Shown here in pieces: positions 6,697 through 33,520 of a stretch of DNA of 64,000 nucleotides (the stretch's first letter is position 1; each line of letters opens with the position of its first letter). A program made the position numbers and the translations under genes. The notes beneath the pieces are model-generated. The model was given only the letters and a program-made list of their open reading frames with translations, was not told the DNA's origin and did no database searches. This DNA comes from Planctomycetota bacterium (GTDB lineage Bacteria > Planctomycetota > UBA11346), in the NCBI GenBank assembly GCA_038231435.1, contig JBBRLJ010000030.1, positions 1-64,000 on the forward strand, read 5' to 3'.

Positions 6697-6726
6697 ACAC
6701 GAGGGGGCCGAGCCACCATCCAGCTT

Positions 6727-6840
6727 TCCGCTTTCCGCTTTCCGCTTTCCGCTATCCGCTATCCGCTATCCGCTATCCGCTATCCGCTATCCGCTATCCG
6801 CTATCCGCTGTCATCTTCAGTCTTCAGTCTTCCATCTTCT
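6727..6840. repeat. Tandem heptamer array (TCCGCTT)x3 (TCCGCTA)x8 TCCGCTG followed by (TCTTCAG)-type heptamers
   Basis: Read directly: 12 in-register units at 6727-6810, then TCA TCTTCAG TCTTCAG TCTTCCA TCTTCT. Confidence 0.95.
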
Positions 6841-24090: not shown

Positions 24091-24987
24091 TCACAGCCTG
24101 CCCATGAAGGTGCCGGTGACGCTGGCGATCGAGGCGCGCGCGGCATGCCGCGAGGGCAGCGACAGCACCTGCCCGCCAAGCAGGTAGGCGGTCTCGGCGT
24201 CGCTGGTGCAGGCGAGCACGGTGAGCTGGCGCGCCGCCTGGATGCGCGCGATCAGGTGCCAGATCTCGTGCTTGGCCATGCCGGCGAGATCGCGCGCCGG
24301 CTCGTCGACCACCAGCAGCTTGGGCTCGAGGATCAGCGCGCGCGCGAGCGCCGCCAGCCGGCGCAGGCGCAGCGAGGCGAGCGCCGAGGCGATGGTCGGG
24401 ATCTCATCGATGCCGAGCAGCTCCTGCATGCGTTCGAGCGCGTCCTTGACCTCGGCGTCGCCGGCCGATCGGTGGTAGCGCAGCGGCAGCGAGATGTTGT
24501 CGGCGAGCGAGAGGTTGCTCAGCAGCCCGCCGTGCTGGGGCACGTAGCCGATGCGCGCGCGCATTGCGTCGAGCTGGTCGCTCGGCAGCAGCCGCGGCCT
24601 GAGCCCGAGCACGCGCAGCTCGCCGTTGGTGGGACGTGTCCCGCCCATCACCAGGGCGATGGCCGCGCTCTTGCCGTTGCCGGCCGGGCCGGTGAGCACC
24701 AGCGAGTGTCCCTGATGCAGCTCGAAGTTGAGATTCTCGAGCAGCGGGGTGGTGTAGGCGCCCGGCGACTGGTACGAGACGCGGTTGAACGACACCAGCG
24801 GTTCGGGAGTGAAGATCTGCGCGTCGGTCTGGCGATGCTGCTGCGCGTCGGGCTCGATGGTCTGCTGGGTGAAGTCGGAGGCGTCGTCCTGCGCGGCGGG
24901 GCGCGGCGACTCGCTTTCGCCATCGCGGCTCTCGCGCGACGTTCCGCTCGTCTCCCCGTCCGCCTGGTCGCCGGATCGCCCGCTCAT
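24091..24987 (-). CDS. mlaF: MlaF-like ABC ATP-binding protein with degenerate motifs
   Basis: Walker A GPAGNGKS, Q-loop GYVPQ, NISLPLRYH, Walker B LLVVDEP; signature and H-switch altered. ATGA overlap with mlaE. Confidence 0.75.
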   Translation of the reverse strand: MSGRSGDQADGETSGTSRESRDGESESPRPAAQDDASDFTQQTIEPDAQQHRQTDAQIFTPEPLVSFNRVSYQSPGAYTTPLLENLNFELHQGHSLVLTGPAGNGKSAAIALVMGGTRPTNGELRVLGLRPRLLPSDQLDAMRARIGYVPQHGGLLSNLSLADNISLPLRYHRSAGDAEVKDALERMQELLGIDEIPTIASALASLRLRRLAALARALILEPKLLVVDEPARDLAGMAKHEIWHLIARIQAARQLTVLACTSDAETAYLLGGQVLSLPSRHAARASIASVTGTFMGRL

Positions 24988-25784
24988 ATGAAGGCCAGCG
25001 CGGTGATCAGGGCGTCCCACACGAAGACCGCGGTGATGGCGCGCACCACGCCGCGGGTCGTGGCGCGCGGGACCTCGGTGATGATGCCAGGGCCGCCGAG
25101 GCCCTCCTTGCAGGCGATGGCGGTGATCAAGAGGCCCGGGACGACGGTCTTGGCGAGCAGGATGACCGCGTCGAATGGCGTGAGGTGCTGGGCCAGGAGC
25201 GCGGTGAAGCGGTCGAGATCCGGCGCGCCCGGCACCAGCAGCAGGCTGAGCACGAATCCGCCAGCGAGCGAGAAGGCGATGAACAGCAGCACCAGGCAGA
25301 CCAGCGAGATGCAGACCCCGCCGAGACGTGGCACCACCAGGTAGCGGAAGGGATCGATGCCCGACCACTCGAGCGCCTGGATCTCGCCGGCCACGCGCAT
25401 GTTCGCGACCTCGGCCGCGATCGCGCTGCCGCTGCGCGCGATCACCACCATCGAGATCAGCAGCGGGCCGAGCTCGCGCACCAGCACCACCACCAGCAGC
25501 TTGCCGAAGAGGTCGGACTGGCCGAGCCCGCCGAGCTGCACCTGACCCTGCACCACCAGGCTCAGCGCGGTGAGCAGCGCGAGCAGGGCGACGAACGGCA
25601 CCGCCTCGACGCCGGTGAAGAGCACCTGGCGCAGCAGCACCTGGCGGGTCACCGGCTGGACGCGCCGCCAGCGCGCGATGCGCAGCAATCCGTAGCCCAC
25701 CAGCGTGGCGATGTCGAGCACGTAGCTGGCGAGCGCGACGGTATTCGCCCCCACCGCGTCGATCACTCCCAACGCTTTGCGCAT
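24984..25784 (-). CDS. mlaE: MlaE family ABC permease
   Basis: QVLFTGVEA, VRELGPLL, ARSGSAIAAEVANM, GIDPFRYLVVPR, EVPRATTRGVV. Confidence 0.9.
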   Translation of the reverse strand: MRKALGVIDAVGANTVALASYVLDIATLVGYGLLRIARWRRVQPVTRQVLLRQVLFTGVEAVPFVALLALLTALSLVVQGQVQLGGLGQSDLFGKLLVVVLVRELGPLLISMVVIARSGSAIAAEVANMRVAGEIQALEWSGIDPFRYLVVPRLGGVCISLVCLVLLFIAFSLAGGFVLSLLLVPGAPDLDRFTALLAQHLTPFDAVILLAKTVVPGLLITAIACKEGLGGPGIITEVPRATTRGVVRAITAVFVWDALITALAFI

Positions 25785-25915
25785 GGGAGGGTTATGCATG
25801 AGGATATGGGGTAATGCAATTGGTGGGGAGGGGTTCGGTCAGCGTTTCGGGGCACGGAGGTCCGAGTCTCGCATCGTTTGATCCGGTATTGAGAGGATGG
25901 GAGGGCGCGGTTGGA

Positions 25916-26110
25916 GAGGGTTCGAAGGTAGGAAGGCTGGAAAGCGAGAAGGCGGGAGGACAGTCGCCGGCACGTGGGATTCGAGCCTTCCGGCCCTCTG
26001 GCGTTCGTACGTTCTCAGCTTCGGGTCTTCGGGTCTTCGCGTCATGTTGGGATTCGAATCGAAAAGGGTTGAAGGTACGAAAGCTGGAAGGCTGGAGGGC
26101 TGGAAGACGG
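25916..26110. repeat. Three blocks of degenerate 8-nt-periodic repeats (consensus GAAGGCTG) in +/-/+ orientation
   Basis: Block A 25916-25963 (6 units), block B 25983-26038 (7 units, reverse complement), block C 26071-26110 (5 units), each in exact 8-nt register. Confidence 0.8.
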
Positions 26111-26155
26111 CCCGAAGGCACGTGTGTCGTGGCATTCTCCCCTGAGCTCGATTGT

Positions 26156-26237
26156 CGCGATCGGCATCGGCGTCAAGGCCAGGCCGCGGGGGCCGCGGTG
26201 GGCGGGGCGCCCAGCCTTGACCCCGATGCCGATCGCG
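26156..26237. repeat. 24-bp inverted repeat (23/24 match) upstream of the four-helix-bundle gene
   Basis: CGCGATCGGCATCGGCGTCAAGGC (26156-26179) pairs with GCCTTGACCCCGATGCCGATCGCG (26214-26237). Confidence 0.9.
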
Positions 26238-26260
26238 GAGTGGGCGCAAGGAGAACGGAC

Positions 26261-26608
26261 ATGCAGAGATTCGAGGACTTGAGCGTGTGGCAGCGAGCGG
26301 CGGGATTGGCGGAGATGATTCGGGAAGAGAGGGGACTGCAGCGCAGCGGCGATGGATTGCGCGGTCAGATCCGCAGGGCCGCGGCATCGATCGCGTACAA
26401 CATCGCTGAGGGTCACGGCCGTGCGTGCGATGGCGACTTCCATCGCTTCCTGTCGATCGCGGGTGGTTCATGCGCCGAAGTGCAGGCGCAGTTGCGCATG
26501 GCGTATCGCGGTGGATTTGTTCCCCGCGATCGCTTCGTCGCCATGCTCGACGAAGCGATCGCCAGCAGATTCATGATCCGCAATCTGCGGCGCAGGCTGA
26601 GCGGATGA
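26261..26608 (+). CDS. Four helix bundle protein (23S rRNA-IVS protein / bAvd-like family)
   Basis: FEDLSVWQRA, LRGQIRRAAASIAYNIAEGHGR, FHRFLSIAGGSCAEVQAQL; 115 aa; RBS AAGGAG. Confidence 0.9.
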   Translation: MQRFEDLSVWQRAAGLAEMIREERGLQRSGDGLRGQIRRAAASIAYNIAEGHGRACDGDFHRFLSIAGGSCAEVQAQLRMAYRGGFVPRDRFVAMLDEAIASRFMIRNLRRRLSG

Positions 26609-26632
26609 GCGGAATCCGCTTCCGCTATCCTC

Positions 26633-29362
26633 CTATTCCAATCCGGCCAACGTCTCCTTGAGATTCGCCAGCTCGACCTGCTCCTTCGCCAGCAGTCCCC
26701 TGGTATCGGCGACTTGTTCCGGCGGCGCTGCCCTGATGTAGTCCGCGTTCGCCAGGCGGCCCTGCTTGCCGGAGATGCTCTTCTCCTTGCCGGCGATCTG
26801 CTTGACCATGTTGGCCTTCAGCTTCTCGAGATCGATCACCCCCGACAACGCGACGTGCAGCTTCAGATCCCCGATGACCTCGGTGACGCTGGTCGCCGGC
26901 TTCGCCAGGCCGGCGCCGATCTCGATGCCGAGCAGATTGCCGCGATCGATGAGGAAGTCGCGGTGCGACGACAGCCCCTGCGCGCGCGTGGCGTCCGGTG
27001 CCGCGACGACGACCGTGAGCTTGGTGCCGTCGGGCAGGTTCTGCTGGTTCCGGATGTTCCGCACGGCGGTGACGATGCGCTGCAGCTCGTCCATGCGCGG
27101 CGCGATCATGGCGTCGGCGAACCGCGATTCGGGTTCGGGAAACTCAGAGACCATCAGGAACGACGTCCACGCGGCGCCGCCGGCGGTGGTCTGCAGCTGC
27201 TGCCACAGGTATTCGGTAATGAACGGCATGCCGGGGTGAAGCAGGCGCAGGACCTTGTCGACGGCGTACCACAGGACCGTGCCGGCGGCGGTGGCCGCCG
27301 GGCCGCCGGCCTTGAACTGGCGTTTCGCCCATTCGACGTACCAGTCGCAGAGGTCGTCGCGGAAGAAGCGGTAGCCGGCGTTGGCGTAGTCGTTGAAGCG
27401 GAACGCCTCGAGCGCGGACGAGCAGTCGGCGATGGCGGTCTGCAGACGGTCGAGCAGCCAGCGTTCCTCGAAGCCCAGCTGCAGGGCAGCGACGTCGGAT
27501 GCCGTCGGCGGTTTCGCGAGCGGGCGCTCGGAGAGGTTCATCAGCAGGAAGCGTCCGGCGTTCCACACCTTGTTGGCGAAATTTCGCCCGGTCTCGAACT
27601 TGGTCGGATTCAGCTTCAGGTCCTGACCTTCGGTGGTCATGTCCAGGAGCGTGTAGCGCAGCGCGTCGGCGCCGTAGCCAGAGCATTGGTAATCCTTGCC
27701 CAGATAGCGCTGCGTGCCGCCCTCGATCATCACCAGCGGATCGATGCCGTTGCCGAGCGACTTCGACATCTTGACCCCGCGCTCGTCGAGCACGGTGCCG
27801 TGGATGTACACGTCCGAGAACGGCTTCTTGTCGAGCGCGAACAGGCTCGCCATGACCATGCGCGCGACCCAGAAGTAGATGATGCCGCGATCGGTGACCA
27901 GGGTCGAGGTCGGGAAGTAGCGCGCGAGCTCGGGCGTGGCCTCGGGCCAGCCGAGGGTGCTGAAGGGCCACAGCGCCGACGAGAACCAGGTGTCGAGCAC
28001 GTCTGGATCCTGCGCCAGGTCGCGCGCGCCGCAGTGCGCGCACGTCGATGGAGCGTCGATGCCGACGGTGATCTGCTTGCAGGTGCCGCAATACCAGGCG
28101 GGGATGCGGTGCCCCCACCAGATCTGGCGCGAGATGCACCAGTCACGGACGTTCTCGAGCCAGTTGCAGTAGACCTTCGTCCAGCGCTCGGGGTGGAAGG
28201 CGACGGCTCCGCTGATCGTCTCGGGCAGAGCGCGCGCCGCGAGGGGGCCCATCTTCACGAACCACTGCTCGGTCACCATCGGCTCGATGGGCTCCTTCGA
28301 GCGCTCGCTGTGGCCCACTGCATGGGTGATGTCGGTGACGCCGAGCAGATCGCCCGATGCCTCGAGCTCCTTGAGCAGGGCCTTGCGGCAGGCGAAGCGG
28401 TCCATCCCGGCGAAGTGCTTGGCCTCGGCGGTCATGCGGCCATCGAAGCCGATGACCTGCAGCAGCCCGAGTTGGTGGCGCTTGCCGACCTCGTAGTCGT
28501 TCGGGTCGTGCGACGGAGTGATCTTCACCGCGCCGGTGCCCTTTTCGGGATCGGCGTGGTCGTCGGCGACGATGGGGATGTCGCGGCCGACGATCGGCAG
28601 GCGAACGCGCTTGCCGATCAGCGCGCGGTAGCGCTCGTCCTTCGCGTTCACCGCGACCGCGAGGTCGCCGAAGAAGGTCTCAGGCCGGGTGGTCTCGACC
28701 TGGATCTCGTCGACTCCGGCGATCGGGCCGCCGACCAGGCGGTAGCGCAGCTTCCACATGTGGCCCTGGACCTCCTGGACGATGACCTCGTCGTCGGAGA
28801 GCGCGGTCTTCAGCACCGTCGACCAGTTCACCATGCGCGTGCCGCGGTAGATCAGGCCAGCGTCGTAGAGGTTTTTGAACTGCGTGCGCACCGCGCGCGA
28901 CAGTCCCTCGTCCATGGTGAAGCGTTCACGGCTCCAGTCGCACGACGAGCCGAGCTTGCGCAGCTGGGTGGTGATGATGCCGCCGGACTGCTCCTTCCAC
29001 GCCCACACGCGTTCGATGAACCGGTCGCGGCCGAGCGCCTCGCGCGTGGTCGATTCCTCCTGCAGCTGCTTCGCGACCACGGCCTCGGTGGCGATGCCGG
29101 CGTGGTCGGTGCCGGGCTGCCACAGCGTGTCGAAACCCTGCATGCGCCGCCAGCGGATCAGCGTGTCCTGCAAGGCGTTGTTGAGCGCGTGGCCCATGTG
29201 CAGGACGCCGGTGACGTTCGGCGGCGGGATCGCGATCGCGTAGTGCGGCTTGCCCGGCCGCTTGCCGGCGCCCGCCTTGAAGCAACCGCCCTCTTCCCAG
29301 CGCCGGTAGACGTCGGACTCGATGGCTTTGGCGTCGTAGGATTTCGGCAGTTCGAGGGCCAT
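26633..29362 (-). CDS. valS: Valine--tRNA ligase
   Basis: PPPNVTGVLHMGH, DHAGIAT, TTRPET, DWCISRQIWWGHRIP, DVLDTWFSS, KMSKS, C-terminal coiled coil. Confidence 0.97.
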   Translation of the reverse strand: MALELPKSYDAKAIESDVYRRWEEGGCFKAGAGKRPGKPHYAIAIPPPNVTGVLHMGHALNNALQDTLIRWRRMQGFDTLWQPGTDHAGIATEAVVAKQLQEESTTREALGRDRFIERVWAWKEQSGGIITTQLRKLGSSCDWSRERFTMDEGLSRAVRTQFKNLYDAGLIYRGTRMVNWSTVLKTALSDDEVIVQEVQGHMWKLRYRLVGGPIAGVDEIQVETTRPETFFGDLAVAVNAKDERYRALIGKRVRLPIVGRDIPIVADDHADPEKGTGAVKITPSHDPNDYEVGKRHQLGLLQVIGFDGRMTAEAKHFAGMDRFACRKALLKELEASGDLLGVTDITHAVGHSERSKEPIEPMVTEQWFVKMGPLAARALPETISGAVAFHPERWTKVYCNWLENVRDWCISRQIWWGHRIPAWYCGTCKQITVGIDAPSTCAHCGARDLAQDPDVLDTWFSSALWPFSTLGWPEATPELARYFPTSTLVTDRGIIYFWVARMVMASLFALDKKPFSDVYIHGTVLDERGVKMSKSLGNGIDPLVMIEGGTQRYLGKDYQCSGYGADALRYTLLDMTTEGQDLKLNPTKFETGRNFANKVWNAGRFLLMNLSERPLAKPPTASDVAALQLGFEERWLLDRLQTAIADCSSALEAFRFNDYANAGYRFFRDDLCDWYVEWAKRQFKAGGPAATAAGTVLWYAVDKVLRLLHPGMPFITEYLWQQLQTTAGGAAWTSFLMVSEFPEPESRFADAMIAPRMDELQRIVTAVRNIRNQQNLPDGTKLTVVVAAPDATRAQGLSSHRDFLIDRGNLLGIEIGAGLAKPATSVTEVIGDLKLHVALSGVIDLEKLKANMVKQIAGKEKSISGKQGRLANADYIRAAPPEQVADTRGLLAKEQVELANLKETLAGLE

Positions 29363-33000: not shown

Positions 33001-33109
33001 GACGCTCATCAGGCGCCGATCGATCATCGGCTCGCCTTGCGAGAGTGATGCGAGAGAGTGATGCGAGAATGATGAAAAAGAGTCATGCGGGAGTACGGAG
33101 ACATGTGAC

Positions 33110-33166: not shown

Positions 33167-33520
33167 TCAGCGATCGCGGCTGTAGCCGCCGCCGCCGCCG
33201 CCGCCTTCGCGACGACCCCCGCCGCCGCCGCCGCCGCCCATGCCACCCCCGCCGCCGCCGCCGCCGCCGCCGCCAGCCTGGCGTGGTTCGGCTTCGCGGA
33301 CGCGCAGCGCGCGACCATCGCAATCGGCGCCGTTGAGCGCGTTGATCGCGGCCGTGCCTTCATTGGCATTGGTCATGGTGACGAATCCGAAACCGCGGCT
33401 GCGGCCGGTATCGCGGTCCATGACGACCTTCGCGCGCTCGACCTTGCCGTGCGCACCGAAGAGCTGCGTGAGCCCTTCATCGTTGATGGACCAGGGGAGA
33501 TTGCCGACGTAGAGTTCCAC
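33167..33520 (-). CDS. RNA-recognition-motif (RRM) RNA-binding protein with Gly-rich tail
   Basis: RNP2 LYVGNL, RNP1 RGFGFVTM, LRVREA; GTG start with GAGGA RBS. Confidence 0.92.
   Translation of the reverse strand: MELYVGNLPWSINDEGLTQLFGAHGKVERAKVVMDRDTGRSRGFGFVTMTNANEGTAAINALNGADCDGRALRVREAEPRQAGGGGGGGGGGGMGGGGGGGGRREGGGGGGGYSRDR

Follow-up and report, generated by a model that had tools for sequence, protein, structure and literature searches.

We lean towards the view that the locus at positions 25,916 to 26,632 of the window (the whole 64,000-nucleotide stretch of planctomycete DNA analysed here) is one of many copies of a chromosomal cassette that is likely selfish and whose leader is predicted to be an Frpo-like promoter that is active only when its template strand is single-stranded. 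The evidence comprises the number of copies, empty orthologous sites, tail-to-tail pairs, gene-less derivatives, a covarying leader stem, conserved -35/-10-like bases within that stem and purifying selection on the gene. The leader is the best-conserved part of the locus and was passed over by the first-pass annotation of this DNA.

The locus carries an Avd-like four-helix-bundle gene

As the first-pass annotation had stated, a 115-aa four-helix-bundle gene is encoded on the plus strand (26261 to 26608) between two minus-strand host genes, mlaE (24984 to 25799) and valS (26633 to 29362), and the insert starts directly after the valS stop codon. In profile searches, the gene product scored above the cut-offs of both family models, with 83.9 bits against PF05635 (cut-off 33.8) and 80.5 bits against TIGR02436 (cut-off 24). 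The predicted protein model (pLDDT 95) consists of four long helices and matched Xcc0516 (PDB 2gsc) with a TM score of 0.91; Xcc0516 was also the nearest solved relative (E 1.7e-12), and BT_0352 (2rld) belongs to the same family. By analogy with 2gsc, the protein probably forms a pentameric ring. The relationship to the DGR accessory protein bAvd (PDB 4dwl) that had been put forward was borne out by structure comparison (TM 0.74, 8% identity), but the likeness is in fold only, as a sequence match was absent even by profile. Homology between PF05635 and Avd is noted in the part of the literature consulted (PMC10053308). A DGR would also carry a reverse transcriptase and a template/variable repeat pair; no PF00078 match was found in this 88%-complete genome, and no such repeat pair was present among the repeats in 25700 to 26900.

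The gene is under purifying selection, with dN/dS of 0.08 to 0.19 against four paralogues and 0.08 to 0.29 across ten paralogue pairs. Among the paralogues of its own clade, dN was 0.06 to 0.16 and dS was 0.43 to 0.92. Synonymous divergence of this size points to old copies and not to a recent burst, and the paralogues of this clade thus appear to be old copies held under purifying selection. Contigs from two sequencing runs of a single study, which may represent the source sample, span the arrays with two differences each, and an assembly artefact is therefore unlikely. No contig joint skipping the insert was found in the contigs of these runs, and hence no empty allele fixes its exact ends.

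Octamer blocks and a likely collapsed copy

The three blocks in 8-nt register that had been described upstream of the gene were confirmed: block A with six units (25916 to 25976 with the stub that follows it, plus strand), block B with seven reverse-complement units (25983 to 26038, minus strand) and block C with five units (26064 to 26124 with its linker, plus strand). Lag-8 identity was 0.68, 0.65 and 0.72 for blocks A, B and C, compared with shuffle means of 0.35, 0.29 and 0.32, and the observed value was reached by none of 2000 dinucleotide shuffles for each block. The palindrome reported between B and C is present, is 10 nt long (26051 to 26060) and was not seen by eye upstream of other paralogues. 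The AGCGGA/TCCGCT motifs noted at the 3' end are also present, forming a short hairpin (26598 to 26626) of the commonest heptamer type of the genome, but their periodicity is weak and was reached by 14 of 2000 shuffles.

Blocks A and B lie outside the unit that is conserved among paralogues (26064 to 26600). The block A region (25913 to 25976) aligned at 80% to the leader-adjacent arm of the paralogue on contig C13, and its 8-nt stub, which resembles the start of the leader, recurs at 26117 to 26124. Since block A and the bases that follow it align to a leader-adjacent arm, A and B are most simply read as the left and right arms of an older copy that lacks its middle. Thus, blocks A and B are likely the arms of an older, collapsed cassette copy.

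In the switch proposed earlier, the ring would control whether block B of the valS-mlaE transcript pairs with A or with C, and mlaEFD would be tuned as a result. Block B is complementary to both A and C, and the three-block alternation also occurs at the C13 paralogue. However, the number, length and spacing of the blocks vary among paralogues with unrelated neighbours, A and B themselves are not conserved among them, and the insert is missing in relatives. When both strands were folded, B:C was favoured over A:B on each, and pairing was weaker on the minus strand (B:C -40 vs -54 kcal/mol; A:B -35 vs -46 kcal/mol). Further, a candidate mlaE promoter (25791 to 25819, minus strand; TTGCAT, 17 nt and a -10-like hexamer) lies outside the cassette and downstream of the insert, and was matched by eye in the relatives G001 and G002. 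Given the weaker minus-strand pairing, the empty sites and this candidate promoter, a conserved mlaEFD switch is unlikely, and we give the pairing switch hardly any credence. A TRAP-like ring reading periodic RNA, as proposed, would act on a terminator or a ribosome-binding site; no terminator-like site was found in 25700 to 26800.

The cassette is multicopy and absent from orthologous sites

The genome (G000) holds 17 genes of the PF05635/TIGR02436 family, and 12 of these form six tail-to-tail (convergent) pairs. The unit that includes block C, the leader and the gene (26064 to 26600) is 83 to 84% identical to four other loci. Among 18 other genomes of the bacterial family, no copy was found in nine, one or two copies in four and 10 to 19 copies in five. 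The other copies likewise lie between ordinary chromosomal genes, and each of the 13 insert sites listed borders directly on one or more stop codons. Three relatives lack the cassette at the valS-mlaE site itself: in G001 and G010 the two genes are neighbours across short spacers without a family gene, and the G002 gap contains a different heptamer array with the family gene absent. An mlaE match was found in five relatives in all, and in the other two mlaE has a different neighbour. The empty sites and the multicopy unit support one of the options raised in the first-pass annotation, that of a small self-contained cassette. The G002 spacer (L048) also contains two copies of a palindromic repeat beside its heptamer array, a content that suggests that valS-mlaE is a repeatedly used insertion site.

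Copies that have lost the gene were also found. At two sites, opposed leaders are fused and the genes are lost, and two sites have a leader whose gene is deleted. The fused leader pairs (G000:C28:36477-36729 and G000:C14:82008-82187) are MITE-like, with arrays still flanking them.

Multiple copies and empty orthologous sites are shared with insertion sequences, MITEs and REP-RAYT elements; unlike in these, neither a convincing Y1/RAYT transposase nor a target-site duplication was found. The Y1/RAYT search returned one marginal Y1 match (25 bits) that is unlinked to the locus, and the longest repeats shared by the insert edges in a rough test were 4 to 7 nt. No long inverted pair spanning the 115-aa gene was recovered in a repeat search at the locus, whereas opposed leaders do enclose the paired copies. 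The PF05635 family is rare on plasmids (22 of 72,556 records) and was found at 14 loci in viral contigs.

The same single-strand promoter could belong to a host stress tool, in which rings binding single-stranded nucleic acid are induced by DNA damage or uptake and the arrays are passive products of slippage. The low dN/dS across the ten paralogue pairs, the age of the copies and the failure to find a mobility enzyme are consistent with such a role, as is the presence in the genome of comEC and dprA, which are common genes. However, the family gene is absent from nine of the 18 other genomes of the bacterial family, its sites differ in close relatives, copies have decayed or lost the gene, and repeat type tracks protein clade, as described below. 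We consider a host stress tool unlikely.

Genes ending at inserts were found to have G in place of C at four-fold sites of the inward-pointing strand. Over the final two bins of 60 nt, the G-for-C shift was 0.89 and 0.74 at 12 gene ends at inserts, compared with 0.46 and 0.43 at 1714 gene ends at plain gaps, and returned to baseline by about 180 nt. The shift was weaker beside gene-less arrays (0.59 vs 0.46). This pattern suggests that insert sites may have undergone repeated strand-biased processing. The last 20 codons of valS are not distinctive in this respect, with 6 G to 3 C here and 9 to 3 in the insert-less G001.

Two convergent family genes in G001 (L068:1063-2964, contig G001:C117) have between them a 633-aa ORF of lower GC content with segments that by eye resemble leucine-rich repeats; this ORF is possibly cargo. 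A pair in G115 (G115:C199, L261) encloses a short AT-rich, ORF-like stretch. G026, which belongs to the same phylum, has 52 PF05635 matches, many with internal stops, and represents a large decaying expansion without the leader.

A covarying leader precedes the gene

The hairpin described after block C was confirmed, with arms at 26156 to 26184 and 26209 to 26237 that are 90% complementary and two apical GC mini-hairpins (26183 to 26212). What had been called a 24-bp hairpin is the middle portion of a 140-nt leader element (26124 to 26263, plus strand; 83 bits with a covariance model whose training set includes this copy). In six genomes from four genera, the leader precedes 64 of the 69 family genes with enough upstream sequence, compared with 0 of 11 family genes in eight other genomes. 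Alignment of 57 of the 64 leaders, with seven near-duplicate or badly trimmed rows excluded, revealed a 24-pair stem in which 89.9% of cells are paired and 13 pairs have double-sided changes. Compensatory cells in the stem numbered 161, compared with 55.5 in shuffled alignments and 17 to 45 in slid controls.

The leader covariance model found many copies in five of 30 relatives, two weak single matches among the others, and matches in 2 of 120 further genomes drawn from the phylum. In those two untrained genomes, 12 of 14 leader matches precede a family gene, and the other two end at contig ends just past the start codon. The leader is an addition made within this clade: by eye, most of the distant homologues sampled have none. 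It matches no Rfam family, since the seven weak matches in 25700 to 26800 all fell far below gathering scores.

In RNA, an anti-Shine-Dalgarno segment in the 5' arm (26135 to 26141) is predicted to pair with the ribosome-binding site (26248 to 26254). Such pairing was predicted in 54 of 56 leaders, and cognate basal arms paired better than swapped arms (-22.7 vs -16.4 kcal/mol). The sense strand folded better as RNA in 39 of 56 leaders, and mid-stem G-U pairs outnumbered A-C pairs by 54 to 2. These findings favour an alternative explanation, in which the leader is an RNA element that hides the ribosome-binding site. A ligand, perhaps the encoded ring in an autoregulatory loop, would open this element or keep it closed; or else RNase III would cut it, as happens in rRNA intervening sequences. 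Consistent with this, binding of Avd to a structured RNA element is described in the part of a preprint consulted (bioRxiv 10.1101/2023.10.23.563531). However, 43 of the G-U pairs lie in one column, no duplex promoter for the gene was found, and Rfam provided no match. An RNA element also leaves unexplained the invariant TTGAC, the A..T pair at fixed -10 spacing, the shift to TAnnnT in an AT-richer genome and the arm-specific conservation described below. We regard it as a rather improbable account of the leader, although an RNA role and a single-strand-promoter role are compatible.

Folded as DNA, the leader of this copy reached -51.6 kcal/mol. C-GNA-G loops, which are unusually stable in DNA, were found on the template strand in 28 of 56 leaders and on the other strand in 5. 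This copy has no GNA loop, and only 1 of the 15 leaders of G000 has one.

The folded minus strand resembles a promoter

On the minus strand, the gene-distal arm of the leader reads TTGAC, 14 nt and (T/G)AnnnT. In this copy, these correspond to a predicted -35 hexamer, TTGACG (26171 to 26176), and a predicted -10 hexamer, GACAAT (26151 to 26156), which is unpaired from its A onwards in the folded strand. The equivalents of A(-11) and T(-7) are kept in 55 of 56 distinct leaders. The gene-proximal arm contains a second TTGAC copy (26217 to 26222, plus strand), whose minus strand would serve as the template side of the -35 duplex. Folding of the minus strand with DNA parameters gave pairing of 0.92 at -12, 0.05 at -11, 0.36 to 0.53 to about -6 and 0.79 to 0.89 over a predicted downstream duplex that includes the anti-Shine-Dalgarno segment. 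This is a fork geometry, in which, according to the sections consulted of PMC2613000, the non-template -11A and -7T matter most. Because the gene-proximal arm would be the template, polymerase would run into the gene, starting 0 to 6 nt before the Shine-Dalgarno sequence; from the -10 geometry, the start in this copy is predicted at about 26249.

These features were also present in G115, a genome of 43% GC that was outside the training set. TAnnnT occurs at the same distance in 11 of 11 leaders. In the distal arm, TT at -35/-34 was never changed, while -33 was changed in 7 of 11 leaders and -31 in 2 of 11. In the proximal arm, -34 to -31 were kept and -35 was changed in 3 of 10 leaders, a count that excludes the mis-anchored row L277. 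Sigma-70 contacts template-strand bases at -33 and -31 (PMC2613000, sections consulted). Thus, the arms appear to be conserved as halves of one duplex. The same arm split is seen in the training set, where -33 changes numbered 9 vs 0, a difference partly forced by the search patterns used. The bubble in G115 is less clear and narrower, with pairing of 0.17 to 0.33 at -12 to -10 and of 0.5 to 0.76 after that.

Spacer length was compared with that of host promoters. Among 2736 upstream regions of this genome, TTG...TAnnnT matches numbered 116, 81 and 69 at spacers of 15, 16 and 17 nt, and 9, which is background, at 14 nt. As host spacers are 15 to 17 nt and not 14, the linear duplex signal is out of range. 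A standard scan at 16 to 18 nt returned no promoter, and no duplex promoter for the 115-aa gene was found. In the leaders, the spacer on the non-template arm is 14 nt in nearly all, whereas that on the template arm is at least 15 nt through a bulge in 46 of 56. Both arms have 14 nt in 9 of 56 leaders, namely this copy and eight other G000 leaders, and the predicted promoter of this copy may therefore be weak or dead. The host promoters of this genome, with their peak at 15 nt over 16 and 17, have spacers shorter than is usual in E. coli.

These hexamers could also be taken for a conventional duplex promoter directed away from the gene, which would make array RNA that is then read by the ring; both hexamers do lie on one arm and one strand and face block C. 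However, its 14-nt spacer is at background among host promoters, an extended -10 is absent, the -33 base is often lost from the distal -35 but retained on the other arm, and a paired stem would be unnecessary. An outward duplex promoter is very unlikely.

A model for a cassette gated by single-stranded DNA

Under the single-strand-promoter reading that we favour, the cassette would be silent as duplex DNA, in which the promoter signal is directed away from the gene and its spacer of 14 nt is unused by host promoters, and RNA arising from read-through would fold over the ribosome-binding site and remain untranslated. The minus strand could be exposed by uptake, transfer, repair, replication or cruciform extrusion; DNA uptake, for which comEC and dprA are at hand, could supply single strands. 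Once exposed, the minus strand would fold so that its two arms create a -35 duplex and a downstream duplex, with a fork at -12/-11. From this structure, RNA polymerase would start approximately at the ribosome-binding site and produce a short message without the blocking arm. In tail-to-tail pairs, one gene would be active whichever strand is exposed.

Several observations do not fit this model well. The spacer is short, this copy lacks a GNA loop, and the bubble is less clear in G115. The excess of G-U pairs and the better folding of the sense strand as RNA favour an RNA hairpin. The searches made found no convincing Y1/RAYT transposase, no reverse transcriptase and no target-site duplication, the copies are old by synonymous divergence, the family is rare on plasmids, and the G015 genome has arrays in which no family gene was found (see below).

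The closest parallels to the predicted promoter are the Frpo/ssi single-stranded-DNA promoters of F and IncI1 plasmid leading regions (PMC9849209, PMC11541004 and PMC12672017, in the sections consulted). As in these, a long imperfect stem-loop on the template strand lies directly upstream of the gene, would rebuild -35 and -10 boxes and is predicted to be silent as duplex. Unlike those described there, the leader is chromosomal and multicopy, with one small gene per promoter, often tail-to-tail, flanking arrays of 5- to 11-mers and a 14/15-nt spacer; oriT or transfer genes are absent nearby in the loci examined, the flanks here are valS and mlaE, and the promoter is a prediction. Single-strand promoters have been described from the leading regions of conjugative elements in these same sources, and a multicopy chromosomal version, if real, would mean that genes whose expression depends on DNA being single-stranded also exist on ordinary chromosomes. 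For a protein family that is widespread but has no known function, such a version would supply a time of action and a candidate substrate, and it would link this family to the heptamer arrays that have long been known but not explained. The promoter reading makes arm-specific predictions.

An ORF-bearing intervening sequence in the 23S rRNA of Coxiella burnetii has heptamers before its gene and has been called selfish (PMC4990558, sections consulted). It shares with the present cassette the protein family, the tandem heptamers just upstream and a block to translation at the ribosome-binding site. In contrast to that element as described there, the cassette does not lie in rRNA, its gene lacks enclosing terminal repeats of a single type, its Shine-Dalgarno sequence is strong, and it is under purifying selection rather than in decay.

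Repeat arrays are linked to the gene family

The genome contains 182 arrays of period 7 and 41 of period 8, with 21, 37 and 32 arrays at periods 5, 10 and 11; arrays were present in 157 of 2531 gaps without a family gene. The enrichment of 7/8-nt periodicity that had been predicted near family genes was found, with arrays in 12 of 16 segments upstream of leaders compared with 77 of 1486 control segments, in a test where genes were called by a rough hexamer model. Repeat type also tracks protein clade: 8-mers accompany all six genes of the clade of the 115-aa gene, 6-mers accompany four genes with a variant leader, and 7-mers accompany most others (59 proteins compared over 117 columns only, five short or broken ones excluded). 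This match may be simple co-inheritance. The octamer pattern GAA(A/G)G has 59 matches in this genome and at most 5 in any of 30 relatives. Leader-adjacent arrays of period 11, 9 and 5 were observed at L084, L121 and L072, and are thus not limited to 7 or 8.

Array density per 100 kb was 3.7 to 8.0 in all five cassette-rich genomes and 0 to 1.1 in five of six genomes without the gene, in small samples of 48 to 198 kb per genome (the whole genome for G000) from related genomes. The exception, G015, has 10.5 arrays per 100 kb in an 86-kb sample; the family gene was not found in this genome, which is 79% complete. A 7/8-mer array adjoins 18 of 24 distant homologues sampled from other phyla, compared with 2 control segments. 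Unlike at the present locus, the arrays of these 18 lie right against the gene, with no leader by eye.

More speculatively, the pentameric ring may bind the periodic single-stranded arms and help the cassette to anneal into, or lengthen, arrays behind stop codons; we offer this as a tentative possibility. Array growth aided by the ring would leave many gene-less arrays, and blocks A and B would be the remnant of one such collapsed copy.

Intergenic heptamer repeats have been reported without explanation in Xanthomonas, including convergent inverted pairs (PMC4692102), and TAACTGA heptamer sets have been reported likewise in Beggiatoaceae (PMC4679880), as far as the sections consulted describe them. 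The available text of the Beggiatoaceae paper (PMC4679880) has no match to 'four helix' or 'intervening'. As in those genomes, drifting 7-mer arrays are abundant here and often form inverted pairs; unlike in the descriptions consulted, the arrays here are tied to a gene family and a leader, and the 8-mer and 6-mer types follow protein clades. A broader proposal would be that a selfish chromosomal element without its own nuclease or polymerase senses single-stranded DNA by a fold-back promoter and fires from either strand through tail-to-tail pairs, while its Avd-like ring recognises its own repeat and seeds or lengthens arrays genome-wide, making it the source of the unexplained heptamer excess in bacteria. 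We regard this full proposal as doubtful. A titles-level literature search, mostly of open-access papers, found no description of such a cassette or chromosomal promoter.

In G015 (L147:15419-18294, contig G015:C156), a 510-aa ORF has next to it a long nested hairpin whose core is GTCAAGG/CCTTGAC. The hairpin was considered as a link to TnpB or to a single-strand origin and was rejected, as no such Pfam family was found and the leader covariance model did not match. By eye, the 510-aa ORF, which had no significant Pfam match, resembles a rolling-circle initiator and is accompanied by a weak ribbon-helix-helix gene.

Other repeats also occur in the window. Two of the 182 heptamer arrays of the genome, at 1 to 51 and 6713 to 6839, are long, gene-less and of the TCCGCT type with drifting units. 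In a tandem-repeat scan, an array with a period of 11/13 was detected at 33038 to 33093 and a (GCC)30 tract at 33185 to 33274.
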